Below the pieces are notes generated by a model. The model did not search any database. It saw only the letters and a list, made by a program, of their open reading frames with translations, and had not been told where the DNA came from. This document shows positions 6,097 through 41,849 of a stretch of DNA of 50,203 nucleotides, piece by piece. This DNA comes from a virus (Duplodnaviria; Caudoviricetes). Every line of letters starts with the position of its first letter. Within the stretch, counting starts at the first letter, position 1. The position numbers and the translations under genes are program-made. The stretch is from positions 1 to 50,203 of IMG/VR virus record IMGVR_UViG_3300045283_000223. One strand, written 5' to 3'.

Positions 6097-6109
6097 CTGG
6101 AGCCCACAA

Positions 6110-10768: not shown

Positions 10769-10777
10769 CACAGCCTC

Positions 10778-11218
10778 CTAGAACACATACCACAGCGTTG
10801 CCAGTAGCATGGCGGTGATCGATACCAGAGTCGGCCAATAGCCCAAGGCGCGCTGTGTCAGGAAGTGGGTGATACCGACCCGGCCGATGATAAGGAACAC
10901 CGCCCCGGCCACCATCAGCGAGACTTGCGTAGTCGTCATCGCGCCACCACCGCCACCGATCCCGACCCGGCGCCAGTACCACACGGTCACCCGGGTGATC
11001 ACCGCGCCCCAGCCCTCGAACACCAGCATGCCGCTGATCCCAATCAGGCACTGGTACAGATCCTGCATAGTGAAGTCGGTGGCGAATTGCACTGGGCTGG
11101 ACCCACCTCGCACCGCGCGGAACAGATACACCAAGTACACATGCATTGCCACTACCATCACCACGGCAGAAATCGCCGACAGGGTATTCGCATACTCCGC
11201 CACAATCGCCAGGTTCAT
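10778..11218 (-). CDS. Multi-pass membrane protein (about 4 TM), holin candidate
   Basis: Four hydrophobic segments; downstream of the endolysin. Confidence 0.7.
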   Translation of the reverse strand: MNLAIVAEYANTLSAISAVVMVVAMHVYLVYLFRAVRGGSSPVQFATDFTMQDLYQCLIGISGMLVFEGWGAVITRVTVWYWRRVGIGGGGGAMTTTQVSLMVAGAVFLIIGRVGITHFLTQRALGYWPTLVSITAMLLATLWYVF

Positions 11219-12672: not shown

Positions 12673-12683
12673 TCGTTGGTTCC

Positions 12684-21690: not shown

Positions 21691-22112
21691 TGGTCTGCCC
21701 TTATTTCGAATGGGATGTAGTCGCCCTGTGGAGTGCCAAACTTCGCCCCGCACCAAGAGAGCCATCGAAGGGATTTCTGGTCATTGGTGTGACCGTGGCC
21801 GACGATGATCGGGTAGTAGTGAAGCATGTCTTCGGTCACGCGCTGGCTGTGGCGGATGAATTGAAAGATGTGGTCTTTGAAATGCCGAGTGGTGTAGAGC
21901 CAGAGGTAGGCCCGGTCGGAAAGCAAGGTAGGCGCGGTAAGGCCCCAAGTGCAAAAGGCGACATCGTCGTCACAGCCGATCCAGGTGAGGGTGGAGTTGG
22001 TCATGACCCGGTGCATGGTTTCACGGTAGATAGGGGATAGTGTTTCTTGGTTCTCACCAAGAATCAAGTTGTAAGATTCAGCTCCAGTGACTTCACGGAT
22101 GTGGAAGGTCAT
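21660..22112 (-). CDS. T7 gp13-like / GNAT-fold virion assembly protein
   Basis: AYLWLYTT...SLRWLSWCGAKF; position between the nozzle and the ejection proteins. Confidence 0.7.
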   Translation of the reverse strand: MTFHIREVTGAESYNLILGENQETLSPIYRETMHRVMTNSTLTWIGCDDDVAFCTWGLTAPTLLSDRAYLWLYTTRHFKDHIFQFIRHSQRVTEDMLHYYPIIVGHGHTNDQKSLRWLSWCGAKFGTPQGDYIPFEIRADQWQRQPALSA

Positions 22113-24949
22113 CGTTTGCCTCCATCGTCGCCAAGGGTGAAGTCGGGGATTACGCCCAGGATAGAGGCAGGTAGGGGCTGGGATTGCTGGATGCAGTACT
22201 GACCGGGAACGGTGAAGGCAGGGGATAAGAAGGTGCGGGCATCACCGGTGACAAGATCGGTGACGATTTGGGATTGTTGACCAGTGAGCATAGAGGAGAC
22301 ATTGCCGACAATCAGATCCTTCATCGGAACAAGGTGGTTGAAGTCTGGGCCGATAGTCAGGCCCAGGGTCTCGGCCACACGGACATCGACGGCGTTGATC
22401 TTCTTCACTTTGCCCTGAATGGTTGGGTCGCCCATTTCGAGGGCTAGGGTCTGAAGCTTGCATGTGAATGGGAGCCCGATCACAACCTTAGACGCAGGGG
22501 CGGAAAGGGTAAATGTGCCAGAGATAGGCATGGTGAAGGACGGGATCACCTTACCGTCAGCGAGGCCGGTCACTGTGGCCCCGGCAAGGAATTGAGCCCC
22601 GGCAAAGGTGGACGCAGGCGATCCGTTGTAGGCGATACCGCAGTCAACGCACCAAGCATCAGCCACGCCCGATAGGAAGATCCGCTCGGCAACACGTTCG
22701 ATGTATTGGATAGTATTGCCGTTTATCGTTCGCTGAACCACAGTGTACACGGCATCGACCTCGCCGGAGGTTGAAGTGTTCTCAATGATTGTGGTGACGG
22801 ATTTGAATGATCCGACGGTGGTGGAATGGGACCAGCCGATGAATTCCTGTTCCTTGAGGAAGGTTAGAGTTAGCATGACCCCATCGGAGCGGATTGCCCA
22901 TACGACCTTGTATGGTTCCTCCGCCCACGCCCAGCCGGTGACGGTGAAGCCGTAGAAGAGATGTGAAGCAAGCGCGGTGATGTCGGTGCCGGTGTAGACA
23001 TTGGCGTAGATGTTGTACGCGGAGTCGCGAACGATGGAGCCTTTGGCCTGGACGTAGAGCACGTCGAAGTTGGCAACGATCGGTGGAATGTCGGAGATCC
23101 CGTTGAAGGACTGAGGATTGGCCACGAGTGCGGCCGGGGAAATGGCGGAGCCGGGCGATCCACCATTGATCAGCCAAGAGGTCCGGTCGGTGAACATCAA
23201 TAGGCCGGAGGTCTGCGGGACCATAGATTTGATTGTGTTTAGCTGGCCGGATACAAGAGTTCCGGTGATGGAATCATCGGCTTGGGTGATAACCGATACG
23301 TTGTAGTTGAAGTACTGCCCCGGTTGGGACGTGTAGAAGGTGGATGGAGCGCCAATGGGGGAGGCCAAGACTAGGCGTTGCTGAAAGAACCCAGGGACGG
23401 AGGGGAAACCATTGCTGGCAGCGCCGAGAGTGGCGGTAGCCGCAGCGGCACCGGATGCGTATGTGACGGTAGGGATGGAGGTATAGCCTGCGCCGGGGTT
23501 TAGGATCTGCACGAGGCCCACGCCCCAGGTAAGATTGGCGGTTGCGCCGGTGCCGATTCCAGAAGTGCCGAGTTGAACCACGGGGTTGGCGGGGGTGGAC
23601 CCGGCGGAGACTGAGCCCACACTACCGCCGACTGTATTGGCTGGTTTCCAAGTGGTGACTGCGCCGGCAGTGACGGTGGCGACGATTAAGACTACGCCGT
23701 TGGAAAAGGTGACGGTGTCGTTGACCACATAGCCGGCACCCCCAGCGCCAATGGTTGGGGTGCCCTGAACCTGAAGCACCGCAGAGATAGACCCGGCGAT
23801 AGTTGAGGCAGCGCCGGTAAGGGAGACCGCAGGAACGGCAGTGTATGTGCCTGCGGCGGTGACGGTTATTGAGGCTACCCCGCTGCCGATGAATGGGTTC
23901 TTGGCAACCGGTGGGGTTTGGGTGAAGTCGGGGGAGATGTTGGAATCGGAGAAGGCCAGGCCGGTGGTGGACCCGATGAAGCCGAAGGTAACGCCAGGGA
24001 CAACTACGGAGACGTAGCTGACATTGGATTTGTAAATGTTGTATCCGACTGCGCCGGGGACGCCGGTCCAGCCAATGTTCATGCTGCCGGCAGTGGTGCG
24101 GAGATCTTGAAATGGGCCGAAATTGGCCTGGGCAGATGGAACGGACTCTTGGCCGTTGCCGTCGATGGCGGTGATTAGATATGCATAGTAGGCAGGGCCT
24201 GAGGTAAGGGAGGTACTGTTGAGCCCAACGAATCCAGGCGGGCCAATTGAGGCGCCGAAGGTTATAGGGAGCAGAGTCCAGTTCGTGGCGGTGATTAGGT
24301 TTAGGATATACGGCTGGTATTTCGGATGGCAGAGGATTAGCTGGCCTACGTTCTGGGCGTATTTGATCAGCTGAAGATCGGCCGCGAGGTATGGTGAGGG
24401 GATTGTATATATCCGCGCGGCGGTGCCACCGGAGGAGAATGCCGTGAAGTGGGTAGAGTCGATTAGGAGCCCGTTTAGATCGGAGAGGGTGACGTTGGCG
24501 CCGGAGACAGAAGCGACTCGGTAATAATTGCTGTTGAGCTGGGTCATCCCATTAACGCCGGAGATGAAGATCCAGTCATTGCCGAGGTAGGTATTGCCGG
24601 GGACCTGGATCACGCAGGGATTGGCGGTAGAGGCAGCGGAGATGGCGAGGCCGGCTTCGAGAATTGGCGATCCGTTGGAGATGAACCGAATGTATTGGTC
24701 GCCAAACTCCAGGACATAGCCAACGGAGAAGCTGGCCTGAAATTGGATCAGCCGAACCGCAGTGGCGGATTTATAGCATTGGATGATGTACTTGGTGCCT
24801 GGACGGGTTGAGGCACCGCCGCGATAGTCGACGAAGAAGTTTTCGAGCAGCGCCGCGCCGGATCGGTATTTGGTCAGATCGACTCGGGCGAAGAGTTTGG
24901 GGGACCACTCACCGGAGTTGAAGGATGCCTGAATTAAGTGGTCGGGCAA
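22109..24949 (-). CDS. Tail tubular protein B (nozzle) with inserted domains
   Basis: QASFNSGEWSP...R.D..KY, YVLEFGDQYIRF, FFQQRLVLA, EQEFIGWS, YIERV; TTG start. Confidence 0.88.
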   Translation of the reverse strand: MPDHLIQASFNSGEWSPKLFARVDLTKYRSGAALLENFFVDYRGGASTRPGTKYIIQCYKSATAVRLIQFQASFSVGYVLEFGDQYIRFISNGSPILEAGLAISAASTANPCVIQVPGNTYLGNDWIFISGVNGMTQLNSNYYRVASVSGANVTLSDLNGLLIDSTHFTAFSSGGTAARIYTIPSPYLAADLQLIKYAQNVGQLILCHPKYQPYILNLITATNWTLLPITFGASIGPPGFVGLNSTSLTSGPAYYAYLITAIDGNGQESVPSAQANFGPFQDLRTTAGSMNIGWTGVPGAVGYNIYKSNVSYVSVVVPGVTFGFIGSTTGLAFSDSNISPDFTQTPPVAKNPFIGSGVASITVTAAGTYTAVPAVSLTGAASTIAGSISAVLQVQGTPTIGAGGAGYVVNDTVTFSNGVVLIVATVTAGAVTTWKPANTVGGSVGSVSAGSTPANPVVQLGTSGIGTGATANLTWGVGLVQILNPGAGYTSIPTVTYASGAAAATATLGAASNGFPSVPGFFQQRLVLASPIGAPSTFYTSQPGQYFNYNVSVITQADDSITGTLVSGQLNTIKSMVPQTSGLLMFTDRTSWLINGGSPGSAISPAALVANPQSFNGISDIPPIVANFDVLYVQAKGSIVRDSAYNIYANVYTGTDITALASHLFYGFTVTGWAWAEEPYKVVWAIRSDGVMLTLTFLKEQEFIGWSHSTTVGSFKSVTTIIENTSTSGEVDAVYTVVQRTINGNTIQYIERVAERIFLSGVADAWCVDCGIAYNGSPASTFAGAQFLAGATVTGLADGKVIPSFTMPISGTFTLSAPASKVVIGLPFTCKLQTLALEMGDPTIQGKVKKINAVDVRVAETLGLTIGPDFNHLVPMKDLIVGNVSSMLTGQQSQIVTDLVTGDARTFLSPAFTVPGQYCIQQSQPLPASILGVIPDFTLGDDGGKR

Positions 24950-24958: not shown

Positions 24959-26047
24959 TCACAAATACAACGGCCACACACCGCCGAAGTCAAAGCCAGA
25001 GTATGGGCCGGAGACGTAGCCATCGGAATAGGCGACACCGCGAATCCGGATCCAGTCGGGGGTGACGTCGTTGATGGTGAGGCCCTCGTTGCCGTCGATC
25101 GAGCGGGCGGACTGGATGGATTCATTGACCTGTTCGACGAGGAGATTGGCCAGGGCCTTATCACCACGTAGGGCCATCTGTAGTGCGGCCCCGGTGAGTT
25201 TGATCAAGGCCGTTTGGAACAGGGTGTCCATCACGTTGGGGTCGATGATTTGGGACACGTAGTTCAGCGTGGCGAATTCCTGATTGGTAAGGATGACCCG
25301 CTGAACACCCTTGGGGCCGGTGGTGAGGTTGAAGGAGGCGGAGGTACCAAGGCCGGTAGAGGAGCCCATAGCAACTGGGTTGGGTTGCACCGCGAAGTAG
25401 GAGCCGCCCTGTGGAGTGGCTTCGCCGATGATGACGTTGACCACGGAGACGGAGGAGACTTGTGACCCGGATAGGCCGGTGACAAGGAGTTGGGCCGGGG
25501 CCCCAATTGGCGGGGATGTGTTGGGGCCGGAAGCGAGGGTGATGATATCGCCAAGGGCGTGGCCGTTGGAGGAGGCGGTCGGGACCGCGGAGATGATAGG
25601 GATGAACTGATCCGTCTGCACCTTGAACTTCACCGGTGAGCCCCACCAATAGGCGGAGGCACCGCCAGTGACTGCGGTGGTGATTGGGGTGGACCCGGCG
25701 AATCCGGTCTGATTGGCAGGGATGATCGACACCGCACGGAGGCAATCGACGGGGTACTGATATTCGTAGGCCCATGGAGGGGGAGGTTGCCCTGGGGCCC
25801 AGAGTTGGGTGGCTGGGGATTGGTTCTCTGGGGTCCCAGGGATGGAGCAGATGTAGGTGAGGTTTGCAGTCTTGAGTGCACAGTCCCACGGCGCGAGGCG
25901 GAGGAGGTCGTCACGAAGGTTGGCGTAGATCAGGTTGAACTGTATCGCCTCGTTGGAGGTGGAGTTGGCGAGTTCGGCATCGGACACTGTGGTGCGTGTG
26001 CCGATGGTTTGCAGCGCGCGGTTGCAGATGTCCGTGACAGAGGTCAT
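24959..26047 (-). CDS. Tail tubular protein A (adaptor) with insertion
   Basis: MTSVTDICNRALQTIG, LLRLAPWDCA, WAYEYQYPVDCLR, DTLFQTAL, ARSIDGNEG. Confidence 0.85.
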   Translation of the reverse strand: MTSVTDICNRALQTIGTRTTVSDAELANSTSNEAIQFNLIYANLRDDLLRLAPWDCALKTANLTYICSIPGTPENQSPATQLWAPGQPPPPWAYEYQYPVDCLRAVSIIPANQTGFAGSTPITTAVTGGASAYWWGSPVKFKVQTDQFIPIISAVPTASSNGHALGDIITLASGPNTSPPIGAPAQLLVTGLSGSQVSSVSVVNVIIGEATPQGGSYFAVQPNPVAMGSSTGLGTSASFNLTTGPKGVQRVILTNQEFATLNYVSQIIDPNVMDTLFQTALIKLTGAALQMALRGDKALANLLVEQVNESIQSARSIDGNEGLTINDVTPDWIRIRGVAYSDGYVSGPYSGFDFGGVWPLYL

Positions 26048-27360: not shown

Positions 27361-28605
27361 TTAAAATCCTGGGCATGATGAAACGGATGATCCGGCTGGC
27401 AGCGCACCGAAGCGCGGGTTGGTGGCTACGGTGAAATCAGTGGCGGCGCAGAGGATCGCGCCGGGCGCTCCGCTGAAGAAGATGCCGTTTGTGTTGGTGC
27501 CGGTTAGAACATTGCCGGATAGCACCGTATGGGCGGAGCCGGTTAGCAACTCGACGGCCGATGTTCCATTCGATGAGAATGTGTTTCCGGTTATCGAAAC
27601 ACCCTGCCCTGCGCTGACGATACCATTGGTCGAACCGGTGATTGTGTTGTTGACGATCGACACCGACGTCGTGCTAGAACCGATCCTAATACAGGCCCCA
27701 CCGGAGTTCTGTTCGCATAGAGAATTCACGATCGCGAGGTTACCACCCGTCATGGTGTTGGCGTCGATCCCTATACCGGTATTGCTTCCGCCTCCGCTTT
27801 GCGCCAAATAGATGTCATTGACGGCTCCGCTGAGGACGAAACCACTTGCTCCGTTAAGCGTGCCCGAAGCGAAGAACATCTGAGCCCCAGCGCCAAATCC
27901 GCCGGAGTTTCCGGAGACAACGATGCCGCTCCCTAAGACGTTGGCATTGGCTTGAACATAGTTCAGGACTGGGCCTGTGGCTCCTGTGTTGGTGGAATTC
28001 CCGTCGAGCCAAATGCCATCAAGTTGGGCGAAGCTCTGGACCACGCTATTGAGTACGACACCGGCGCCGGTGATGTGTATCCCGTACTGATGCCCGATTA
28101 CACCAACATTCGAAATTGTGTTGACGCCTCCAGAATCCAGAATGCCCGGTCCTGTTCGACTGGCGGCGGCAACTGAGCTAGTCACGGCGAGATCATTGAG
28201 TTGTCCGAAGGCCGCCGTGATTGTGATGACCGGCGCCGAAACAGAATTGCCACGGATTTCGGTTGCGCCAGGAACGTTGCTGAACGTTCCGCCCTGACCT
28301 TGGAAGATAATCGACTTGCTAAGGGTGATGTTCGAGACGATGCAGACACCGCTTTGAATGATCAGCGTTCCACCATTTGCGGGCATCGCGGCGACAGCAG
28401 CAGCAAATGCTGATGTATCGTCCGTAGCGCCGTCGCAGAGCACACCGTAGCTTCTGGCGTAGAATGGCCCGTTAACGGAAACCGAAGGAAGGAAAGCGCC
28501 GTTAGATCGAGTCTGGTTGGAACTGCGTGGCGGCCCATCCATTTGGGCCAAGGCTGGAGAGGCTAGGGCTGAGGAGGCCAGGAGAAGGAGAAGAAGTCGC
28601 TTCAT
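27361..28605 (-). CDS. Pectate-lyase-like beta-helix (tailspike/depolymerase-like) with Sec signal peptide
   Basis: MKRLLLLLLASSALASPALA|Q; YGVLCDGATDDTSAFAAAV...GGTLIIQSG; repeated I.NN.I / GNT beta-helix rungs. Confidence 0.82.
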   Translation of the reverse strand: MKRLLLLLLASSALASPALAQMDGPPRSSNQTRSNGAFLPSVSVNGPFYARSYGVLCDGATDDTSAFAAAVAAMPANGGTLIIQSGVCIVSNITLSKSIIFQGQGGTFSNVPGATEIRGNSVSAPVITITAAFGQLNDLAVTSSVAAASRTGPGILDSGGVNTISNVGVIGHQYGIHITGAGVVLNSVVQSFAQLDGIWLDGNSTNTGATGPVLNYVQANANVLGSGIVVSGNSGGFGAGAQMFFASGTLNGASGFVLSGAVNDIYLAQSGGGSNTGIGIDANTMTGGNLAIVNSLCEQNSGGACIRIGSSTTSVSIVNNTITGSTNGIVSAGQGVSITGNTFSSNGTSAVELLTGSAHTVLSGNVLTGTNTNGIFFSGAPGAILCAATDFTVATNPRFGALPAGSSVSSCPGF

Positions 28606-28608
28606 GGA

Positions 28609-29088
28609 TTAGTAATCCCAGCAGGTGGCAACGACGGCAACTACAGACCCGCCAGAAACAAAGGCGGTGGAAAAGTAGGCTTGGAGGGTATCACCTGAGA
28701 CGATCTGGATGTAGAAGTTGCCGTATTGATCGATAGGGAGTGCAGACCACATTAGATTGACTGAAGGAACGCCGGCTGAGCCACCAGCGCCGGAGGGCAC
28801 ATTGACAGTATTAGCGGTGTAGAGTGTAGCGGCGTTGGTGATGGTGATGGTGACTGGATGGGCGACGGAATCATTGGTCGAAGCCCAGATCATATAGCAG
28901 CGGGAGCCATTGGCGCCGGCGGTGTAGAGGGTTTTGGGGGTGAGTGCGGCGTCTGTGCCCTGAACAAATCGGGCAAGGCCTCGATTAGGGACCTGTGGCG
29001 TGATGAAGGAATTTGGGGTTGTGGCCGCAAAGGTAGGGGAGATCCCAAGGAGTAGTACGGCAAGGATGGCAAGAAGCTTTTTCATCAC
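28609..29088 (-). CDS. Signal-peptide protein, beta-rich
   Basis: MKKLLAILAVLLLGISPTFA|A; TLYTAGANGSR; two Cys. Confidence 0.8.
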   Translation of the reverse strand: MMKKLLAILAVLLLGISPTFAATTPNSFITPQVPNRGLARFVQGTDAALTPKTLYTAGANGSRCYMIWASTNDSVAHPVTITITNAATLYTANTVNVPSGAGGSAGVPSVNLMWSALPIDQYGNFYIQIVSGDTLQAYFSTAFVSGGSVVAVVATCWDY

Positions 29089-29393
29089 TGTGACCCTGCA
29101 AGAGTGGCGAGAGCGGCGGAGGTGAAGCCTACGTTGGGGATAGCGTAGGTATTATCGGCACGGAGGAAGGTGGAGGTACCGCCGGGGGAGGTGAGGCCAC
29201 CGAAGGCCCCGGCGTTGTTGAATTGGACTTGGCCGTTGCTGCCGCCGGGGATGCCGGTGAGGACGGAGTTGGAGACCGCGCCTGGGATGCCGCCGGGGAT
29301 TGTGCCGCAGATGGTATTGGCTGGAAATACGCCATTGCATTGACCGAAGGCAGCCGAAGGCAGAAGGGTGAGGAGAAGGAGAAGCTTCTTCAT
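29085..29393 (-). CDS. Signal-peptide protein with tail-fibre shaft motifs
   Basis: MKKLLLLLTLLPSAAFG|Q; PGGSNGQVQFNNAGAFGG and GGTSTFLRADNTYA. Confidence 0.78.
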   Translation of the reverse strand: MKKLLLLLTLLPSAAFGQCNGVFPANTICGTIPGGIPGAVSNSVLTGIPGGSNGQVQFNNAGAFGGLTSPGGTSTFLRADNTYAIPNVGFTSAALATLAGSQ

Positions 29394-29818
29394 TGGAGCA
29401 GGGTCCATCCACCGGTTTCGAGGATTGGTTTGAGAAGGAATGCGCCGTAGGGGGTGGCGAGGCGGATTGTGGTAAGGCCGGAGATGGTCTCACCGGCGAT
29501 GGGGTTGATGGTGTAGGTGTTGGTCCCGGCAAAGCCGCCGACGTCAGCGATGGTGACAAGGGCGAGATACCATTGGCCGGGGATGGATTGTGGGCCGGCG
29601 GTCGCGGCCTTGGAGGATGGGAGGTTGATTGTGACATTGCCATTGGCGGCGATAGTGATTAGGTTGGTCCCGCGGGAGATCGCGTAGGTGCCAGTAGCGG
29701 TGATGGGAAGGATTGCCTGCTGGGGAACATATAGCCAGCCGACCGAAGGGCCCATGAAGACCCGCTGGTATTGGCGAAAGGTGCCGCCCTGGTCGAGATC
29801 GAGTTGTGACGGACTCAT
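29390..29818 (-). CDS. Fibre/baseplate-like beta-domain protein, no signal peptide
   Basis: VTINLP...VTIADVGGFAGTNTYTINPIAGETISG...GGW pattern seen in phage fibre domains. Confidence 0.7.
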   Translation of the reverse strand: MSPSQLDLDQGGTFRQYQRVFMGPSVGWLYVPQQAILPITATGTYAISRGTNLITIAANGNVTINLPSSKAATAGPQSIPGQWYLALVTIADVGGFAGTNTYTINPIAGETISGLTTIRLATPYGAFLLKPILETGGWTLLQ

Positions 29819-30117
29819 TGGGCCTCACGAAGGAGTTTGGCGTAGGAGGACTTGTTGTACTCGGCTAGTTGGCATTTGGCGACTTCGGCGAAGGCAAGAG
29901 GGCCGAGATCGGCGGCGACCGCGACGGAGGCGATGGCAAGGGTTCGGCCGGCGTAGCGCTCTGGGGACCAAGGGGCCGGATGGCAGTATTCCGCGACCAT
30001 GTGGGAGATGATGACTTCTTGGGTTTGGTCGGCCCAATGGCGTGGGTCGAGGCAGAGATAGGCCGAGGCCGCACCGAGGGTGAAGGCAAGGATAGCGGTG
30101 AGGCCCAGGCGAAGCAT
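29815..30117 (-). CDS. Small protein with N-terminal TM/signal segment
   Basis: MLRLGLTAILAFTLGAASAYL; three Cys; ATGA coupling. Confidence 0.6.
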   Translation of the reverse strand: MLRLGLTAILAFTLGAASAYLCLDPRHWADQTQEVIISHMVAEYCHPAPWSPERYAGRTLAIASVAVAADLGPLAFAEVAKCQLAEYNKSSYAKLLREAQ

Positions 30118-30120
30118 CGG

Positions 30121-30651
30121 TCAGACTCGACGGGTGGAAGGGGTAGGTTCGGGTTCGGCCGCGGGGACGGCAGCCTCGAGTACAGCAAGGCGGGCCTCCA
30201 GAACTTCGACCTCAGTGGTCACTGGTGCCGGTGGCGCCACCTTCGCAAAGTTCTCCATCATGGCTTTCATGAAGGCGAGCTCTTTGGAGTCCATGCCGCC
30301 GTTGACTGGGAGGGTCTCGATTGGGTGCTCCCACTTGGGGCGCAGCCGATCGGTGATTTCCTGGGCGGCGTCGTTCAGTGGCTCCATCTCGGGGGTGGGA
30401 TCGCTGGAGAAGATGTAATCCCGCGGGTTGTTGTGGTCGCCTTTATAGGCGACAATGATCTCGCTGGGGTGGTTGAAGTCGGAGGGGTCCTTGGGGTTGA
30501 GGTACATTGGGACGGGGAAGAGTTTCCGGACGGTACGCCCGGTCTCGCGCGCGGTTTCCTTGTGTTCCCACTCGACACGGGTGCCGTCGGGGAGTTGCTG
30601 AATGTTGAGGTAATGTTCGTTGATTAAGCGCCAACGCGGGGCTTCGGTCAT
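30121..30651 (-). CDS. Hypothetical protein
   Basis: AAGGAG SD; soluble; C-terminal coiled coil. Confidence 0.75.
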   Translation of the reverse strand: MTEAPRWRLINEHYLNIQQLPDGTRVEWEHKETARETGRTVRKLFPVPMYLNPKDPSDFNHPSEIIVAYKGDHNNPRDYIFSSDPTPEMEPLNDAAQEITDRLRPKWEHPIETLPVNGGMDSKELAFMKAMMENFAKVAPPAPVTTEVEVLEARLAVLEAAVPAAEPEPTPSTRRV

Positions 30652-30663
30652 TGGATAGTCTCC

Positions 30664-31410
30664 TTATTTACTGTTGTATTCTGTGATTAGCACGCAACCG
30701 TTGCCGCCTTGGCCACCGGCTGCGGTAGATGCGGAGCCTTCGCTTTCACCGCCAGAACCGCCACCGCCGCAGGCAGTCCCGGCTACACCGTTTACGATAC
30801 CAGCAGTGGCGTCGACACCAGGGGCACCTCCACCCCATGGACCGCTGGCTCCATAGCCGGATGGGCCATCGGCTGTGGTTATGGTAGCGGCAAAGCCAGA
30901 GCCGCCGGAATTGCCGGTGATCTTGAAATCACCAGTACCACTTGCCGCGCTGCCTCCAAGACCACCTCCACCCGCAGATCCTGCTGCTGTTCCAGCAGCA
31001 CCGAAGGATCCACCCTTTGCGACGCATAAGGTGCCGAGGGAAGTGTCATTGCCGGCAGAACCAGAATTAGCCCCAGTGGCACCGCCATTGGCTGCGGCGG
31101 TGTTAGTGATGGCTTGTGAAGCGCCAACTTGGGCGGAAGTTAGACGGACTCGAGAATAGCCCCCGGAGCCGCCACCACCACCAGAGGTCGCACCAGTGGC
31201 TGCGGCAGCAGCACCTCCGCCACCACCGCCTTGGCCAACGCATTCAACAATGGCAAAGAGTAGATTGGCGTTAGGAGTATAGGTGCCATTGGAGGACGTG
31301 GTGAAGGATTGAAAGGTGGTGCTATAGGCGGCTGCTCCGGAGGTGGTGATGGTTTGAGCCGAAGCCGAGGACAGGGTGAGGGAGAGGAGAAATGCAAACA
31401 GTCGGGTCAT
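30664..31410 (-). CDS. Signal-peptide glycine-rich fibre-type domain protein
   Basis: MTRLFAFLLSLTLSSASA|Q; FTTSSNGTYTP...VECVGQGGGGGG...GGNGCVLITEY, a Gly-rich domain typical of phage fibre C-termini. Confidence 0.8.
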   Translation of the reverse strand: MTRLFAFLLSLTLSSASAQTITTSGAAAYSTTFQSFTTSSNGTYTPNANLLFAIVECVGQGGGGGGAAAAATGATSGGGGGSGGYSRVRLTSAQVGASQAITNTAAANGGATGANSGSAGNDTSLGTLCVAKGGSFGAAGTAAGSAGGGGLGGSAASGTGDFKITGNSGGSGFAATITTADGPSGYGASGPWGGGAPGVDATAGIVNGVAGTACGGGGSGGESEGSASTAAGGQGGNGCVLITEYNSK

Positions 31411-32663
31411 TGGATTGTCCCGTGAATGAAGCCGACGGTGGACGCGGTCTTGGTAGCACAGGCGGTGGAGGATATGACTGCGGTGATACCGACGGAGAAG
31501 AACTCGAATGGTTGCGGGGTGTAGTTGATTGAGCCAATGCCTCCGGCGGCGATGGGGATGCAGTCTTGAAGACCACCGGAAGCGGTGCCAGCGGTAGTAG
31601 CGCCGTCGCCTGGGGCAGTGGCGGAGTTGAAGATCATTAGCCAGCAGGCAGCGGTGCAGTTGGCGTAGGCGGAGATGAGGTGACCGGCAGCGGCCTTGAG
31701 AACGAGGGAAGAGGAAGCAGAACCAGCAACAGAGGAGACTGCAGTGATTGGGTTGCCGGATGAGTCGCCGACGGTGACTTGGTTGATTTGCATCGTGGAT
31801 TGGGTGGCGGGTCCAGAGGTGCCGTTCGCGATAACGAAGCTGGCAGGGAGTTGGTTGACGTCAGGGCCGAGAGCGCCGCGGGTGGTGTAGGCGACCAGCA
31901 GAAGTTGGCCGTTGATTTGGTTCTCCATATACCAGAGAATGTTATCGCCGCGGAAGTATATGACGTATTTGTATGACCCGGTGTCGGTGTGTTGGGGGTT
32001 ACAGGCGCAGCCACCGGAGAAGGAGCCGGGTGCACCGGAAAGGGATTGGGTGGTGACTGGAACGAAGCCTTGAGTGACGGAGAGATCAGCGATTATGGTG
32101 CGAGCGCCAGAGGCCCAGGTGACCGCGCGGAGCTTGCCATCGGTGCCGTCCTCGAAGCCGACGCAATCGGTGCAGTAGGCGGCCGCGGTAGGGGTGGTCG
32201 GGATTGTGCCGAAGCCGATGAATTCGACCGTGTTGGTGGTGGACGGGTTGGAGAGGTTGATGTTGGCCTGGAAGAAGAGGTAGCCGGGGTTCTTGTCGAA
32301 GAAGATCAACTGGGTGGAAAGGGCGGAGAAGCCATTGGCGGAGGTGCCGCCGGCGAGGGTGGTTTGGCCAGTGGCGTTTGAGGCGGCGGTACCGCCGGTG
32401 CCGGAGGTTGGGGTGCGCCATCGGTTGATGGTGTTGAGGGTACCGGTGGAGAAGTCGTCGACGAAGAGTTGCTTGGTTTGATCCGGCCAGTTTTGCACCC
32501 AGCCGCCGTTGGTGGTCGGGACCGCGCCGATGGGGACGCCCTGGGATCCGTTGGAGTAGGAGCCGGCTTGGGGGACAACGTTCGCGCCGCCTTGGATGGG
32601 GAAGGATTGAGCGAAGGCAAAGACGGGCCACAGGGCCAGCAGAAGGGAAAGGATTCGTTTCAT
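31407..32663 (-). CDS. Signal-peptide beta-sandwich/lectin-like protein (418 aa)
   Basis: Real start ATG 32663: MKRILSLLLALWPVFAFA|Q, GGAG SD; FVDDFSTGTLNT..RW; several Cys pairs. Confidence 0.8.
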   Translation of the reverse strand: MKRILSLLLALWPVFAFAQSFPIQGGANVVPQAGSYSNGSQGVPIGAVPTTNGGWVQNWPDQTKQLFVDDFSTGTLNTINRWRTPTSGTGGTAASNATGQTTLAGGTSANGFSALSTQLIFFDKNPGYLFFQANINLSNPSTTNTVEFIGFGTIPTTPTAAAYCTDCVGFEDGTDGKLRAVTWASGARTIIADLSVTQGFVPVTTQSLSGAPGSFSGGCACNPQHTDTGSYKYVIYFRGDNILWYMENQINGQLLLVAYTTRGALGPDVNQLPASFVIANGTSGPATQSTMQINQVTVGDSSGNPITAVSSVAGSASSSLVLKAAAGHLISAYANCTAACWLMIFNSATAPGDGATTAGTASGGLQDCIPIAAGGIGSINYTPQPFEFFSVGITAVISSTACATKTASTVGFIHGTIQ

Positions 32664-33691
32664 TGCAAGCTCCAACGTTGGAGGGCGGCAGGTAGGCGGA
32701 GTGGGTGGGCCGCGTAGTCGCGGGAGATGTTGCCGAGGACGGCGAAGGCGATTAGGGCGGTGATCGGATGGTAGAATGGGAACCAGAAGGCGGCGAGGGC
32801 CGCAGTGGCGAAGACGATTGGCCAATAAAGGGATCGGTGGGCAAGGAGGCCGCAGGTGAGGACGGCGAGGAGAGGGATCGCGCCAATGCCGAATTCGAAG
32901 GCGAGCTGGAGATAGTCGTTGTGGACGAACTGCGGATGCATTACCACATCGGCTGCGTCGCGGTAGAAGACAAGGTCGAAGTTCCCTGGGCCCCAACCGA
33001 GAAGGGTCAGGCCGCGGTAGGCCACGACCCAGATTTGCAGTCGGATGGAGTCGGTCAGGCCGGGGTGATAGGTGAAGATGATGGCGGCGGCCAGGAGGAG
33101 GATTAGGGCGGTTAGGGCACCGAGGTAACGGGCGACAAGACCGGCGGCCAGGATCAGCCACCCGCCACGGGAGCCGGAGAGGATTAGGCCGAGGGCAGGG
33201 CCGGGCAGCCAGAGCCATGCGCGCTCGAGGGAGAGGGCCAAAAGGGCGAGAGCACAGACGGCGGAGGAGACGGTCGGGTTGATTAAGAGGCCAGGATAGC
33301 CGGTGGCGGTGGGGATTAAGATCTCGAAGTAGCCAAAGGCTTGGGCTAGGGCAAAGCCCGTGGAGATGGTAAGGCCAAGGGCTAGGCCGAGCCAGAGATG
33401 GCGGAGGGAGTGGTACATGGAGCCAAGGGTAAAGGTCATGGCCCAGGCGAAGGGGAACCATAGGCCGAGGCTATCGAGGGAGTAGGCCCAAGAGAGGCCC
33501 AAGACGATATAGCCCATGAAGCCACAGCCGAGCCAGAAGGGTACGCTGGGGTGGATAGGGTTGCGATCGTTGAGATGGCCGTAGAGGATCAGGAACGGCA
33601 AGGCCACAGCGAGGACATACCACTGCACGGGTCCACCCTCAGCCTCAGGGAGGTAGGAGATGGGGAGAATGAGGCCGAGGGTGAAGAGCAT
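32660..33691 (-). CDS. O-antigen ligase / O-oligosaccharyltransferase (Wzy_C, WaaL/PglL-like) membrane protein
   Basis: About 10 TM segments; LILSGSRGGWL, SIRLQIW, LLGWGPGNF, VHNDYLQLAFEFGI. Confidence 0.88.
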   Translation of the reverse strand: MLFTLGLILPISYLPEAEGGPVQWYVLAVALPFLILYGHLNDRNPIHPSVPFWLGCGFMGYIVLGLSWAYSLDSLGLWFPFAWAMTFTLGSMYHSLRHLWLGLALGLTISTGFALAQAFGYFEILIPTATGYPGLLINPTVSSAVCALALLALSLERAWLWLPGPALGLILSGSRGGWLILAAGLVARYLGALTALILLLAAAIIFTYHPGLTDSIRLQIWVVAYRGLTLLGWGPGNFDLVFYRDAADVVMHPQFVHNDYLQLAFEFGIGAIPLLAVLTCGLLAHRSLYWPIVFATAALAAFWFPFYHPITALIAFAVLGNISRDYAAHPLRLPAALQRWSLQ

Positions 33692-33701
33692 GGTAAGGGC
33701 C

Positions 33702-34145
33702 TTACTTGGAGCCTGAGCAGTAGTAGGAGACGACGTTGGACGAGGTGCCAACCTGCGTGGTGATCAGGGCCTGGAAGCCGACGGCGGCCGCAGCGATTGG
33801 GGTGGCGAGGGCAGCCTGGGAGAAGACCATGCAGTAGGGGGTCGCAAGGTAGGCCTTGTTGAAGGCTATGGTGACGCCGACGGAGTTGGCGCCGTTGGTG
33901 ATGAGGCCAGCGGTATCGGTGCCGACCACAGTGCAGGCACCACCGGAGGCGGTGGGGGTGCAAGTGGGGGTGCCCGGGCCGGTGGTGAGTTGGTGGCCCG
34001 GGATGTAGAGGTTGTTGTTGGAGTCGACCTGGAACGCCCCGGTGGTGTCTTGGGAGAGTTGCAGGGCCCGGGTGAAGGTCTGGGCGAGGGCAAAGCCGAG
34101 GCCTAGAAGGAGGATGAGGGCGGAAGGGAGGAGATATTTGCGCAT
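33702..34145 (-). CDS. Signal-peptide Thr-rich protein
   Basis: MRKYLLPSALILLLGLGFALA|Q; PTC...ACTVVGTDTAG...TIAFNKAYLATPYCMV...YYC. Confidence 0.8.
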   Translation of the reverse strand: MRKYLLPSALILLLGLGFALAQTFTRALQLSQDTTGAFQVDSNNNLYIPGHQLTTGPGTPTCTPTASGGACTVVGTDTAGLITNGANSVGVTIAFNKAYLATPYCMVFSQAALATPIAAAAVGFQALITTQVGTSSNVVSYYCSGSK

Positions 34146-34157
34146 GGGGGATTAACC

Positions 34158-34403
34158 TCACTGAGTTACAAGATATATGGTTGCTCCAGAGAGGTTTTGT
34201 CCTCCCTGAAACAGTTGCCCTCCAGCGGGGATCACTGGATCAAAGGCATTTGTAACATCTGCACCAACAGCAAAGGTGCTGCTTCCAGGCGAAACCACAA
34301 GCGCCTGAACCACCTTATCGCCAGCTAGAGCCGAAGGAACATTGATTGCATTTGGCCCAGGATTTGGAAAGGTGCCTATGATGAAGTTAACGATTGTGGT
34401 CAT
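34158..34403 (-). CDS. Small beta-rich protein, lower GC
   Basis: GGAGGAG SD; 81 aa; no signal peptide. Confidence 0.7.
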   Translation of the reverse strand: MTTIVNFIIGTFPNPGPNAINVPSALAGDKVVQALVVSPGSSTFAVGADVTNAFDPVIPAGGQLFQGGQNLSGATIYLVTQ

Positions 34404-34406
34404 GGG

Positions 34407-35057
34407 TTACTCCTCCGTCCAAACGACCGAGCCGTTATATACCGAAGCATTACCCAACGCAGTTGAGTTATTCAGGCAGATCTGCTGCGCGGTACCGCGC
34501 AGTGTGGCGAGTTGGACGTTGTTTTCGGCATCGCGAGCGAAGTGAAAGTCGACTACTCCTGGGGCCTGAGTAGTGGCTAGGCCTAGAGGTAGGGCGATCA
34601 ACTGCGAGTCGATATAGACCGGAGCGGTATCAACAATGGTTGGAGCTGCGGTATAGGTGTTCAACACTGCGGTGGAGGCAGTGTTGAGATTTTGCCCGGT
34701 ATCGCGAGAGGCGATCTGTGTGGCGATGCCTGGATTGGCAGTCGTGGTTGCCACAGTGCCACCAGTATCGAGAGAGGCTCGACGAAGCATTTGGATCGGC
34801 ATGGTCTGTGCCGCAGTGGCAGTGGTGCCCCATAAGGTGATTCGCTGAATGCGAACGATTCTAGTGGCTGATCCTGATATGCATAGGAAGTCTGAGTTGG
34901 CTCCAGTCGGAGGGACCAAAGCGAAGAAGGCAGAGGAATAGGTCTGCTTGGCGTAATAGCCGGTGGAGAGGCCGGGTTGGGGGGTGACATTGACCTGAGC
35001 CAAGCTTGAGGCCAGAAGCCCCAAGAAGATGGCGAGGGAAAGAAGGAGTCGTTTCAT
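34407..35057 (-). CDS. Signal-peptide protein (216 aa)
   Basis: Real start ATG 35057 after GGGAGGG: MKRLLLSLAIFLGLLASSLA|Q; ends WTEE; two Cys. Confidence 0.8.
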   Translation of the reverse strand: MKRLLLSLAIFLGLLASSLAQVNVTPQPGLSTGYYAKQTYSSAFFALVPPTGANSDFLCISGSATRIVRIQRITLWGTTATAAQTMPIQMLRRASLDTGGTVATTTANPGIATQIASRDTGQNLNTASTAVLNTYTAAPTIVDTAPVYIDSQLIALPLGLATTQAPGVVDFHFARDAENNVQLATLRGTAQQICLNNSTALGNASVYNGSVVWTEE

Positions 35058-35068: not shown

Positions 35069-35602
35069 TCAATTCGCGATGGTGATGCCGGCGGGGTATC
35101 CGCCGAGGGTGGAGTTGACGGTGGAGGAGTAGGCTTGGTCGTGCCGGTCGAGCACGATGAAGGCGGAGACGTTGCCTGCCGTGGTGGTGGCGCCGCCGAT
35201 CACATAGGAGAGTTGCAGGAAGCGGGGGATGGCGATGCCGGCAGGAGGGCGGGGCATGTCGATGTCCATCAGCCGTGCGCCCTGAACGAGGGTGGCAAGG
35301 GCGTAGGCTGGAGATACCCACCAGTCCGAGAAGGCGTTGGCGGCGCCTAGGCCGTTGTCCGTGGCGCCTTGAAATTTGACTTGGAGGGTCGCAGCGCCGG
35401 CAGAGGTAACGGTGGTGGTGATCTGGACCAGGATCTTCATCGCTGGGTCATCGCCGATGCCGATGTCTCTGGCGCCCTGGAGGTTGGCAAGGACGGGGAT
35501 TCCGGCCATATGGAGATCCAGGGAGTTGCTGGAGACGATGGTGGAGGTCACAGCCGCGATCGACTGGTTGACCGAGAACGCGAGTAGGTTGTCGAGGATC
35601 AT
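35069..35602 (-). CDS. Capsid cement protein (BPP-1 Bbp16-like)
   Basis: MILDNLLAFS..Q.I...S.N.LDL...RDIGIG...AATLQV..Q...RFLQLSY; directly after the major capsid gene. Confidence 0.82.
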   Translation of the reverse strand: MILDNLLAFSVNQSIAAVTSTIVSSNSLDLHMAGIPVLANLQGARDIGIGDDPAMKILVQITTTVTSAGAATLQVKFQGATDNGLGAANAFSDWWVSPAYALATLVQGARLMDIDMPRPPAGIAIPRFLQLSYVIGGATTTAGNVSAFIVLDRHDQAYSSTVNSTLGGYPAGITIAN

Positions 35603-35612
35603 GGGGTGCTCC

Positions 35613-36656
35613 TTACGAAACGGTTGCTTCGTTGGACAGGATGGCGTCACAGGTGCGAACCGGGATGCCGCGGAAGGTAGTGATGACTTTGCCGTCGAAT
35701 TCTTCCAGACGAAGAAGAACGTTCGTTTTGTTCATAGCTTGGAGATCCAGATACGTCCGAACGATGCGGTTGCAGTAGATCATCACCCGACCCATATTGG
35801 CGCGGATGTTCGGGGTGTCTGAGGTCTGGATCGCGGTGGCCATCGACGGGGCAGTGGGCATGCGGTAGAGGCCGCGGACGATCAGGTTGATCAGGTTGGC
35901 GGCGGAGACACCGGTGAGCTGGCTGACGTCGATGTTCGCGAGGCGGACGACGTAGCGCCAGTCGCGAAGGCAGAGCCCCACTTCCCATTTGAAGTGGTCC
36001 CGGTAGGCTTGGTAGGTGTTGCCCGAGGCGTCTTGGACCGGCCACTCGCCCATGTCGCGGTGCTGGAGGCCGGTGATTTTGCCCTTGGGGAAGATGCCGT
36101 GGAGGGTGTCTGAGCCCCAGGTGGTGATCCAGATGGAGGTGTTGGTGGAGGCCGCACCGCCGCCGGAGAGGATGTTGTTGGCGGTCTGGGAGTTGGCGGT
36201 GGTGAGGGTGGAGTAGCGTGGGGCAAGGCCGGTGAAGCGATCGGGGTTGACGAACTGATTGCCATAGATGAAGGTGGCGGCGACCTGTTGGGACATGCCC
36301 TCCAAGAATGCTCTGACCTCACTAAGGCGGAACTCCGCGGTGTTGCCGTTGAGATCGGCGATGTCCTTGTCGATGACGGCGTAGGACTCGAGGTTGCCGC
36401 AGGTATCGACGATCTGCGCGGTGGTGGACTTGGCGTTGGGGACACCGGCGTTGAGTAAGCGCCAGGTTGCCTGGGGGAGACCAGTGCGCACGGTGGTCTT
36501 GTGCCCGGTGGGGAGGTTGCCTTCCATGACGAGGATGTCGTCGAGGATTTCATTGGTTTGGGACAGGAGCTCGACGATAGAGGCGATGCGATAGCCGTCT
36601 TCCATTCGCTTTGCCCAGTCGAGATAGGTTAGGGCTACGGAGCCGATAGCGGCCAT
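35613..36656 (-). CDS. Major capsid protein (BPP-1 Bbp17-like)
   Basis: IVELLSQTNEILDD...EGNLPTGHKTTVRTGLP, GLCLRDWRYVVRLANID, FRGIPVRTCDAILSNEA. Confidence 0.93.
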   Translation of the reverse strand: MAAIGSVALTYLDWAKRMEDGYRIASIVELLSQTNEILDDILVMEGNLPTGHKTTVRTGLPQATWRLLNAGVPNAKSTTAQIVDTCGNLESYAVIDKDIADLNGNTAEFRLSEVRAFLEGMSQQVAATFIYGNQFVNPDRFTGLAPRYSTLTTANSQTANNILSGGGAASTNTSIWITTWGSDTLHGIFPKGKITGLQHRDMGEWPVQDASGNTYQAYRDHFKWEVGLCLRDWRYVVRLANIDVSQLTGVSAANLINLIVRGLYRMPTAPSMATAIQTSDTPNIRANMGRVMIYCNRIVRTYLDLQAMNKTNVLLRLEEFDGKVITTFRGIPVRTCDAILSNEATVS

Positions 36657-37457: not shown

Positions 37458-37743
37458 TGGCTTCTCGCATTGCTTGTATGAATTGATCGGGGCAGGCCAC
37501 CATTATGTCGGAGAGTAAACGCAGGCCTAGGTTACGTTCACCGTCGAAGATACCGGATAGGCGTGGATCGGAGATGGTGTTGGCGTCGAACATGTGGGCG
37601 GAGGTGAGGAGATCCCAGATCCACTGTCGGCCGGCCATGGTTGTCATCATGCCGGTGATGACTTCCTGGCGTTGGCGATTGGCGATTGCGGCCGCCTTCT
37701 CGCGGCGGCGGATGGATTTGCGATCGATGGCGGAGTCGGTCAT
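37336..37743 (-). CDS. Bbp19-like protein
   Basis: M.T.AGRQWIWDLL...FDGERNLGLRLL; between portal and scaffold. Confidence 0.75.
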   Translation of the reverse strand: MTDSAIDRKSIRRREKAAAIANRQRQEVITGMMTTMAGRQWIWDLLTSAHMFDANTISDPRLSGIFDGERNLGLRLLSDIMVACPDQFIQAMREANDRAHTDERRSSPEPDGGDPGSVDPNDPDYDPYTTDDDYR

Positions 37744-39785: not shown

Positions 39786-40070
39786 CTATTGCCCCAAGAG
39801 GGTCTTCTGGCCGGATTGGGTTGGTGGGGTGGCCGCAGCCCCGATGAAGGATTGGGTAGCGGCTTTGGGCTTGGCAGCGGTGCCCATGGGGGAAGAAGCG
39901 GGTGGGGCTGCGGCTGGCGGCGGCGCGGCAGGGGCAGCGGGGGCAGCGGGGGCAGCGGAGGATCCACCACCGGCGATGGCAGCGGTGGCGCCGCCAGCGA
40001 GCCCGGCAAGGGCGAGGCCGGTAAGGGTGATGGGGTCGATGGCGAGAACCAAAGGCAAATGCTCAATCAT
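39786..40070 (-). CDS. Small Ala/Pro-rich virion-associated protein
   Basis: Ends KTLLGQ, the usual ending of the small gene preceding podovirus portals. Confidence 0.7.
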   Translation of the reverse strand: MIEHLPLVLAIDPITLTGLALAGLAGGATAAIAGGGSSAAPAAPAAPAAPPPAAAPPASSPMGTAAKPKAATQSFIGAAATPPTQSGQKTLLGQ

Positions 40071-41572: not shown

Positions 41573-41648
41573 CGCGTGGTCGGCGACGGGTGGTCGGGAA
41601 GCCCCGATGCGATCGGCACTGAACGATGTCCGACTACCATCTAGGCGA

Positions 41649-41849
41649 TCAAGCACCAGGGCTTCCCTTCTCGTCGGGCCAGAGGATGTGGCTGGGCTGA
41701 CCCGGGATGCAGCATATTGGGCAGAGGCGGCGTTCGACGAGGCGGAGGTGCTTGTCGAAGAACGGGGTCACGATCATCGCGTCGGTCTGGGCATAGGCCC
41801 AGGAGAAGAACTCTGGATCGTGGATGGATTGTGGGCGGTACCCGGCCAT
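41649..41849 (-). CDS. Small hypothetical protein
   Basis: TAATG coupling with the upstream gene; CPICC. Confidence 0.45.
   Translation of the reverse strand: MAGYRPQSIHDPEFFSWAYAQTDAMIVTPFFDKHLRLVERRLCPICCIPGQPSHILWPDEKGSPGA

Follow-up and report, generated by a model that had tools for sequence, protein, structure and literature searches.

The stretch of DNA analysed here (the window) is the whole of the virus record IMGVR_UViG_3300045283_000223, 50,203 bases long, and carries direct terminal repeats. It is a complete podovirus genome with an epsilon15/BPP-1-type capsid and a T7-type adaptor and nozzle. We investigated a cassette in its late operon, between the genes for the cement protein and the tail adaptor, where positions 27361-35057 hold 13 genes on the minus strand, separated by gaps of 3-12 nucleotides or joined by 4-nucleotide overlaps. 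Seven of the 13 (sp1 to sp7) open with canonical leaders of the signal peptidase I (SPase I) type, complete with n-, h- and c-regions, and a WaaL-like membrane protein is encoded among them. Taken together, the results presented below suggest that the host-recognition parts of this phage probably mature outside the cytoplasm. The genes concerned are given here in the order of transcription (aa, amino acids; a slash marks the predicted cleavage site; the leader score is described below).

34407..35057, minus strand: sp1, 216 aa, two Cys; leader score 4.13; leader and junction MKRLLLSLAIFLGLLASSLA/Q, predicted as SSLA/QVNVTP; leader kept in four relatives
34158..34403, minus strand: g81, 81 aa, leaderless, no Cys; open reading frame (ORF) with no family in Pfam, PHROGs or NCBIfam
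33702..34145, minus strand: sp2, 147 aa, four Cys; leader score 4.71; leader ending ...GFALA/Q (FALA/QTFTRA); directly upstream of the WaaL-like gene
32660..33691, minus strand: WaaL-like (Wzy_C-superfamily) polytopic membrane protein, 343 aa, assigned from its fold and relatives; the ORF extends to a TTG at 33751
31407..32663, minus strand: sp3, 418 aa, eight Cys; leader score 4.66; leader ending ...VFAFA/Q; 76-86% identical in six related contigs
30664..31410, minus strand: sp4, 248 aa, Gly-rich, four Cys; leader ending ...SSASA/Q; PF21722 Gly_rich_2 and phrog_863
30121..30651, minus strand: g176, charged, leaderless, no Cys; 28-59% identity in relatives by tblastn; no family in Pfam, PHROGs or NCBIfam
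29815..30117, minus strand: tm100, 100 aa, three Cys; N-terminal hydrophobic segment (AASA/YLC), score 3.66
29390..29818, minus strand: g142, 142 aa, leaderless, no Cys; mean column identity of 68% in an alignment of 10 sequences
29085..29393, minus strand: sp5, 102 aa, two Cys; leader score 4.34; leader ending ...SAAFG/QC, then only the N-module QCNGVF..C..GGSNGQVQFNN
28609..29088, minus strand: sp6, 159 aa, two Cys; leader score 4.61; leader ending ...SPTFA/A (TFA/ATTPN); no family in Pfam, PHROGs or NCBIfam
27361..28605, minus strand: sp7, 414 aa, six Cys; leader score 4.57; leader ending ...SPALA/Q; right-handed beta-helix (depolymerase-like)

Leaders were scored with a home-made function of the von Heijne type, which looks for a positive n-region, an uncharged hydrophobic h-region of 8-16 residues and small residues at positions -3 and -1, at 1393 candidate starts of ORFs of at least 60 aa in the six frames of the whole window. 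Eleven starts scored at least 4.0, all of them in the seven leader ORFs, and the next best value (3.66) was that of tm100, with its ASA/Y site. The ORF starting at 29088 does so at a GTG, with an ATG at 29085. Gln stands just after the predicted cleavage site in six of the seven proteins, sp7 being counted at ALA/Q. A lipoprotein (SPase II) identity was considered and rejected, as the proteins have neither a lipobox nor a Cys at +1 and a Gln precedes the Cys in sp5 (AFG/QC). Ser, Thr and Gly together make up 29-51% of the mature parts versus 9-30% of other late proteins, and charged residues 2-10% versus 10-34%. Cys counts from sp1 to sp7 (2, 4, 8, 4, 2, 2 and 6) are even in all seven cases, and g81, g176 and g142 have none. 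All eight ORF starts listed in an earlier note on this DNA (35057, 34145, 32663, 31410, 29393, 29088, 28605 and 30117) were found on the minus strand, and its description of mostly tightly coupled genes, seven Sec/SPase I signal peptides, an N-terminal hydrophobic segment in the eighth product and Ser/Thr/Gly-rich mature parts with Cys was borne out.

A further feature of these genes is their third-position GC content, which is 0.39-0.65 in the cassette, whereas the genes for adaptor, capsid, portal and terminase reach 0.70-0.82; the leader-bearing run of L021, an unrelated lineage, is likewise low (0.43-0.52 versus 0.7-0.79). Amino-acid composition or a separate gene origin could explain this dip.

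A scan of IMG/VR with sp3 yielded six loci (L002-L007), all of them syntenic with the window from capsid to nozzle. Every homologue of sp1, sp2, sp3 and sp5 in these contigs is leader-bearing, sp2 homologues with leaders being present in five relatives, and so are all the replacement genes that occupy variable slots of the cassette; the earlier note had asked whether homologues in related phages lack signal peptides, and leaders were present in all of them. The leaders of the sp3 proteins are only 17-35% identical, versus 78-88% for the mature part, and the A/Q junction and the eight Cys are retained in six of six; likewise, two Cys are found in five of five sp1 proteins. Drift of a leader ahead of a fixed junction and fixed Cys is the pattern of a cleaved targeting peptide, not that of a docking surface. 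Judging from these sequence features, the leaders are very probably functional signal peptides.

The contrary explanation is that the N-terminal segments do not serve export at all, and that the proteins fold in the cytoplasm and are added to the tail by the normal route, with a helix used for oligomerisation, for docking or as a temporary tether to the cytoplasmic face of the inner membrane. This would follow the textbook route of tailed-phage assembly, and the fibre-type domains described below are otherwise ordinary. It fits poorly and we regard it as highly improbable, because every homologue shows all three regions (n, h and c) and has small residues at positions -3 and -1, because the leader drifts ahead of a constant junction and constant first mature residues (QCNGVF, QQFPIQ), as with cleaved leaders, because Cys counts are even and conserved, and because the N-termini of leaderless proteins with these domains are polar and of quite another kind.

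The mature parts were then compared with known families and structures. sp5 consists, beyond its leader, of an N-module of 85 residues that carries the GGSNGQVQFNNAGAFGG motif, and it is followed in the window by the separate leader-bearing sp6 and sp7. Eight relatives have the same N-module joined to distal parts that are unrelated and 405-599 aa long, with 30-93% identity in the N-module and 11-51% in the rest, and the mature start QCNGVF..C is invariant in nine of nine sp5 relatives. Among 47 longer relatives of sp5, 44 have a leader that runs directly into the mature start QC.G after Ala or Gly, and Gln follows the predicted cleavage site in 43 of the 47; the remaining three are leaderless long proteins in which the common part is only the fibre motif G..Q(F/Y)NN. 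Pfam matches in this set of 47 were Pectate_lyase_3 (two proteins), Beta_helix (one), the endosialidase chaperone Peptidase_S74 (one) and DUF5907 (one). The sp5 of the window is either bound non-covalently by sp6 and sp7 or a remnant. Its upstream neighbour g142 lies directly upstream of an sp5-type gene in L002, L003, L005, L006, L007, L040, L041 and L051 as well, and may be a candidate partner of sp5 made in the cytoplasm; in the Atlas it occurred in viral clusters only, with Phage_depo_C in 33% of one cluster as a weak lead.

Four further proteins gave matches of their own. sp4 matched Gly_rich_2 with 32.5 bits (Pfam cut-off 24.3) and phrog_863 with an E value of 2.7e-25, in addition to three PHROGs named 'tail fiber protein'. 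Residues 36-216 of sp1 align with the C-terminal 164 aa of a leaderless fibre-like protein of 1044 aa (30% identity, E 2e-17). For sp7, Beta_helix (E 1.2e-4, 22.2 bits) and NosD (E 1.1e-4, 22.1 bits) both stayed below the Pfam cut-off, and TIGR04247 (E 8.9e-6) stayed far below its own. The fourth, sp3, is a lectin-like protein treated below. Eleven leader-bearing relatives (nine sp5-type long forms, the 442-aa protein of L003 and a 311-aa protein of L005) gave no Pfam match and two PHROGs matches, namely a pectin-lyase PHROG in the sp5-type protein of L041 and phrog_863 in the L003 protein. With tblastn, no match to sp3, sp4 or sp7 was obtained in 50,697 phage records, although the low-complexity filter may hide sp4, and no homologue of tm100 was found in L002-L007.

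sp3 consists of the leader, a low-confidence linker of about 40 residues, a ConA-like lectin/glucanase jelly roll (residues about 60-305) and a C-terminal domain (CTD) that forms a beta-sandwich (about 305-418). In the AlphaFold2 (AF2) model, which has a mean predicted local distance difference test (pLDDT) value of 86.8, residues 64-301 matched GH16 glucanases and lectins with VIA Z values up to 17.5, and the top Foldseek match was the receptor-binding domain of mycobacteriophage TM4 gp23. Structural matches covering both domains were found in uncultured Caudovirales. An exhaustive HMMER search at the 50% cluster level returned 974 relatives with E values of at most 1e-3. Of the best 150 of these 974, 62 were accepted by the leader score in its strict form, and inspection by eye added about 18. 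About 70 others have no leader; these reach lengths of up to 1702 aa, start with polar, fibre-like N-termini and have only the ConA-like domain in common with sp3. The CTD ends 35 of the same best 150; the score accepted 26 of these, a leader was recognised by eye in seven, and the last two are truncated or unclear. At the level of sequence, then, the lectin domain is common to classical fibre-like and to exported proteins, and the CTD is tied to export.

The CTD was detected in 28 viral loci, including lineages that share nothing else with the window; in these unrelated lineages, runs of four to eight leader-bearing, Cys-rich genes follow large, Cys-free proteins of internal-virion type. An sp4 homologue directly follows the CTD gene in eight of 22 further viral loci. 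Among 185,579 species genomes, only two loci with the CTD were confirmed, both in alphaproteobacterial metagenome-assembled genomes (MAGs). One of them (L009, positions 622-11182, in a Caulobacterales bin) is a phage-like contig in which terminase, P22-type portal, capsid and two small genes are followed by a leader-plus-CTD protein, a protein with the sp5 fibre motif and then lysozyme; this is a very compact layout of a head plus exported fibres, with a capsid family different from that of the window. The other (L008, positions 6937-10735) is a three-gene island beside an IS110 transposase on a 1.56-Mb MAG contig, encoding a DUF5907 protein, a 283-aa leader-plus-CTD protein and an 806-aa leader-bearing protein, and no phage genes lie within the 16 kb seen. 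The CTD may also be compared with the C-terminal domains of type IX secretion in Bacteroidota (Por_Secre_tail/TIGR04183 or CHU_C/TIGR04131); sequence searches gave no Pfam match for sp3 and no NCBIfam match at E values up to 1 for sp3 and three other CTD proteins. In the Atlas, CTD proteins fell into unnamed viral clusters, apart from XepA in 11% of one cluster (a weak lead).

PHROGs and Pfam scans of two sets of 25 and 22 further proteins or ORFs, 11 of the second set being ORFs of the window, named no other fibre or spike gene, which is absence of annotation and not proof of absence; the names obtained were those of adaptor, nozzle, internal virion, lysis, packaging and replication proteins. 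The earlier note had likewise recognised no other fibre gene, and it had reported fibre or spike motifs in several of the exported proteins. Gly_rich_2 in sp4 (above cut-off) and GGSNGQVQFNNAGAFGG in sp5 agree with that report, the beta-helix of sp7 reached Pfam only below cut-off, and the wider view of the mature parts as fibre- and spike-type modules held through the ConA-like domain, the tail-fibre PHROGs, the match of sp1 to the tip of a fibre-like protein and the sp5 family. From their domains we consider it likely that the seven proteins are of the receptor-binding type.

Leader apart, the set has the architecture of tailspikes and fibres. Podovirus fibres and tailspikes are modular, as in T7 gp17, P22 gp9 and the K1F endosialidase type. 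The cassette resembles them in its position in the structural module, in the conserved N-terminal module with swapped distal domains, in the pectate-lyase beta-helix, Peptidase_S74 and Gly-rich domains found among family members, and in a ConA-like domain of the kind seen in phage receptor-binding domains. It differs in that all members have a predicted cleavable Sec-type leader and paired Cys, in that no particle-binding domain was recognised, and in that functions are spread over seven short genes.

The membrane protein encoded between sp2 and sp3 was analysed in the same way. Its start is likely the ATG at 33691 and not the TTG at 33751, as had been assumed earlier. The window copy gave no match to PF04932 or to any other Pfam family even at E values up to 10. 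A word-index search returned 30 proteins including the query, that is, 29 relatives, of which 20 matched PF04932 at E values of at most 0.01 (best 1.9e-7); the copy of L005 reached 26.5 bits (cut-off 31.7). SxSRG, DxxR and HND..Q stand out as invariant motifs in the alignment of 29 sequences (the query and 28 relatives), and R175, R217 and H257 are invariant as well. The AF2 model (pLDDT 86.8, predicted template modelling score 0.88) matched WaaL (7TPJ) with a Z of 20.9 and a root-mean-square deviation of 4.5 over 302 of the 343 residues, the next match being RodA with a Z of 9.3, and Foldseek gave 7TPG with an E value of 5.3e-5 and a TM score of 0.59. A profile of the family had no hit at E values up to 10 in the sequences of the PDB, so that the fold search alone found WaaL. 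The Wzy_C identity proposed in the earlier note therefore does not show in the window copy by Pfam, and stands on the relatives and on the fold. Compared with WaaL of Cupriavidus metallidurans (7TPG/7TPJ), the phage protein shares the fold over its whole length, and the Arg and His motifs conserved in its family are candidate counterparts of the catalytic residues; it differs in its length (343 aa versus 403 aa), in a short loop in place of the periplasmic domain and in being phage-encoded, in a late operon, beside exported fibre-type proteins and below Pfam detection. The wider Wzy_C group comprises the PglL/PilO O-oligosaccharyltransferases and the Wzy polymerases.

When viral contigs were scanned with the single protein, no WaaL-like gene was found, and an alignment-based scan found it in 27 viral loci. 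Linkage was analysed in 25 of them, two being dropped as repeats of contigs already included. Leaders were present in 23 of 91 ORFs located at most two genes from the WaaL-like gene versus 13 of 182 farther away, and 15 of the 25 loci have a leader-bearing neighbour, a number reached by random placement in two of 2000 trials, in a test that overstates significance because the loci are related and not independent. An sp2 homologue lies directly upstream of the WaaL-like gene in L035, L040, L041, L046, L051 and L052. The earlier note had suggested a survey of IMG/VR for Wzy_C together with signal-peptide genes after Bbp16-like genes; in the viral contigs analysed here, neighbours of the WaaL-like gene were leader-bearing more often than at random positions. 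The enzyme could attach glycan to the exported proteins, as PglL does, or change the lipopolysaccharide (LPS) of the host; that it glycosylates the seven proteins we consider unlikely.

In textbook tailed phages every virion part is folded and assembled in the cytoplasm, and we know of no tailed phage that builds virion parts outside it. The leaders, the fixed mature N-terminus and the paired Cys lead us to infer Sec transport, cleavage by SPase I and disulfide formation for the seven proteins. The course of events may be pictured as follows. Late in infection, the seven receptor-binding-type proteins, comprising a lectin-like protein with its CTD, a Gly-rich fibre domain, a depolymerase-like beta-helix protein, a fibre N-module and three small proteins, would be translated with SPase I signal peptides, transported by Sec to the periplasm, cleaved mostly to an N-terminal Gln and locked by disulfide bonds. 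DNA-filled heads with adaptor and nozzle would be assembled in the cytoplasm as usual, and the two sets of parts would meet only when holin, endolysin and spanin breach the envelope, whereupon the exported proteins would dock on the tail or the head; the sp5 N-module, the CTD and the leaderless g142 are candidate docking elements. The WaaL-like enzyme, in the same compartment, would use glycan linked to undecaprenyl pyrophosphate and either decorate the Ser/Thr/Gly-rich proteins or alter the LPS of the host, in an accessory role. In vitro, completed particles of model phages spontaneously take up decoration proteins and tailspikes, such as those of P22, which makes docking at the time of lysis physically plausible.

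That the host-recognition set is exported by Sec, disulfide-bonded and docked on particles at lysis is a reading we put forward tentatively, at somewhat less than even confidence, and the presence of the seven proteins on virions is held with the same reserve. The idea of periplasmic appendage maturation in the earlier note gains partial support from leaders that are kept while they drift, from the A/Q junction and the conserved even Cys, from the fibre-type modules and from the WaaL fold and linkage, its docking step being tentative and its glycosylation step the less likely part. A more general form of this reading, in which a widespread, uncultured group of tailed phages has a two-compartment recognition apparatus, with heads and tails made in the cytoplasm, with all fibres and spikes exported by Sec, disulfide-bonded and starting with Gln, and in some members of the group glycosylated in the periplasm by the WaaL-like enzyme, and with the QCNGVF N-module and the CTD docking at lysis to complete the infectious particle, is possible but doubtful.

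Several observations weigh against export and docking at lysis. The leader score is crude and home-made, and missed two obvious leaders in relatives that were identified by eye. The seven proteins showed no recognisable particle-binding domain of a known kind; the sp5 of the window is an N-module with nothing attached, and about 35 mature residues precede the beta-helix of sp7. The conservation of sp3 equals that of the capsid protein (76-86%), a degree not usual among receptor-binding proteins that would agree with an enzyme or a structural lectin. In another lineage, L021, the leader-bearing array is followed by a tailspike-like gene without a leader, so leader-bearing arrays need not be the sole fibres. 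The L008 locus places the CTD in a chromosome with no phage genes nearby, and hence the CTD can exist apart from a virion. Finally, the WaaL-like gene is present in two of the five close relatives that cover its site, and in the other three a leader-bearing protein of 442-443 aa stands at its position (the L003 copy being the one that matches phrog_863); the gene is accordingly accessory and dispensable for the cassette.

Much of this would suit a different fate, in which the seven proteins leave the cytoplasm without becoming part of the virion and act on the envelope of the infected cell; the lectin-like and depolymerase-like ones would mask, cut or rebuild surface glycans together with the WaaL-like enzyme, and so block superinfection, spare progeny from loss on debris or loosen the capsule or wall at release; the cell-surface structure on the infected host considered earlier belongs here. 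Leaders and paired Cys suit any exported protein, the lack of a recognised particle-binding domain, the L008 chromosome and the unusually high conservation of sp3 agree with it, and the WaaL fold is that of an enzyme whose best-known substrate is lipid A-core. There is also precedent for exported proteins encoded in late or tail regions, namely Lom and Bor of lambda, Llp of T5 and Cor of phi80 and N15. These resemble the cassette proteins in bearing leaders, in being encoded among structural genes and in acting in the envelope; they are, however, single outer-membrane proteins or lipoproteins unrelated to fibres, whereas the cassette has seven genes in a row with fibre-type domains and no lipobox, in a genome with no other recognised fibre. 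Action in the envelope would leave a complete podovirus genome without a receptor-binding protein, and it does not account for the fibre-like build of sp5 relatives (distal domains exchanged behind a constant N-module and, in one relative, an endosialidase chaperone) nor for domains held in common with long leaderless fibre-like proteins. Seven genes, or 7.7 kb of a lytic-looking 50-kb genome, would be a heavy cost for exclusion, late expression would leave little time for LPS remodelling, and the CTD was confirmed in two loci among the 185,579 species genomes versus 28 viral loci. We rate this fate as rather unlikely, although it is the main competitor of docking on virions.

The rest of the genome was annotated from PHROGs and Pfam scans. 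GP7-type capsid (PF20911, E 5.7e-132) and Bbp16-type cement (PF21190, E 1.1e-14) identify an epsilon15/BPP-1-type podovirus. The late genes follow this order.

40067-41656, minus strand: terminase (Pfam/PHROGs scans)
37740-39482, minus strand: portal (Pfam/PHROGs scans)
between the portal and capsid genes, minus strand: scaffold (Pfam/PHROGs scans)
35613-36656, minus strand: GP7-type capsid protein
35069..35650, minus strand: Bbp16-type cement protein, the upstream border of the cassette; PF21190 above cut-off, phrog_427
between the cassette and the adaptor, minus strand: small genes g137, g145 and g88, placed by late-gene order
24959..26047, minus strand: tail adaptor, the downstream border; phrog_394 tail protein, E 1.1e-35
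22109..24949, minus strand: nozzle; phrog_376, E 3.8e-156; PF25675 Phage_nozzle below cut-off
after the nozzle, minus strand: three internal-virion-type proteins of 208, 713 and 2105 aa (PHROGs/Pfam)
after the internal-virion genes, minus strand: lysis block, an endolysin with an N-terminal membrane segment and an Rz-like spanin hit (PHROGs/Pfam)

The capsid protein is 47-55% identical to the best-listed records (25 of 103 matching records listed), which come from phages of Salmonella, Enterobacter, Klebsiella, Escherichia and Pseudomonas, and all 103 records are below 60%; identity of the nozzle to any deposited phage is only about 30-35%. Three tandem adaptor paralogues (241, 253 and 347 aa) are present in a related contig (L033, 16734-19219) versus one in the window. 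The 2105-aa protein (12684-19001, minus strand) is free of Cys, has an N-terminal LPD22 domain and matches phrog_9880 over residues 990-2089. In the endolysin (12025-12702, minus strand), Phage_lysozyme covers residues 99-217 and the N-terminal hydrophobic segment is of the signal-anchor-release type; the spanin hit, a weak one, lies downstream at 10346-10771 (minus strand). The plus strand encodes a helicase, an exonuclease, an annealing protein and a DNA polymerase. Two plus-strand ORFs (6463-7605 and 7664-9232) match consecutive stretches of the phrog_17 DNA polymerase (positions 548-788 and 807-1243) and represent either a split polymerase gene or a gene with an unrecognised intervening element of about 60 nucleotides. 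No tRNA was found in the window, and no integrase or repressor family among the ORFs scanned with PHROGs and Pfam, a set that takes in part of the small ORFs.

This setting bears on one more explanation, that the cassette is a block of lysogenic-conversion morons of the epsilon15/D3 type, in which a prophage expresses genes that modify the O-antigen. In its favour, the phage has an epsilon15-type capsid, and serotype-converting phages do carry Wzy-type enzymes. Yet the scanned ORFs include no integrase or repressor, terminal repeats are present, DNA polymerase, helicase and annealing protein are encoded by the phage itself, the cassette genes overlap by 4 nucleotides and are packed into the late operon, with head genes on one side and tail genes on the other, and the block consists mostly of fibre-type domains and not of glycan enzymes. 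The explanation fits poorly, and among all those weighed here it is the one to which we give least credence.

Clues to the host diverge. Gln after the SPase I site is described as a Bacteroidetes-specific Q-rule (PMC5837995), and the Gln found in six of seven cassette proteins and 43 of 47 longer sp5 relatives agrees with it and points to Bacteroidota; the two CTD loci in bacterial genomes point to Alphaproteobacteria. The O-glycosylation sequon of Bacteroidota, D[ST][AILVMT], was looked for and is not enriched, with five occurrences in about 1570 mature residues. The spanin hit, the endolysin with its N-terminal membrane segment and the WaaL fold point to a diderm host.

No description of Sec-exported fibres in tailed phages was found in the full-text literature, a coverage that excludes subscription journals. 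The window adds a complete genome of small size whose entire recognisable fibre set bears export leaders, fold-level support for a WaaL-like protein together with a tested linkage between its gene and leader-bearing genes, and two defined modules tied to leaders, the QCNGVF N-module and the CTD. If the whole receptor-binding set is exported, the final assembly step comes after the envelope has been breached, and disulfides and periplasmic glycan transfer become usable by fibres, for stability and perhaps for camouflage. Pipelines that read a signal peptide as a sign against a structural protein would then overlook the proteins that set host range in many uncultured phages. If true, the two-compartment apparatus would add a new stage to the morphogenesis of tailed phages, and virion proteins would for the first time be seen to be glycosylated in the periplasm. 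The family is large (974 relatives of sp3 and 47 longer relatives of the sp5 N-module). It was not found in 50,697 deposited phage genomes and so represents an unstudied branch of phage-host recognition.

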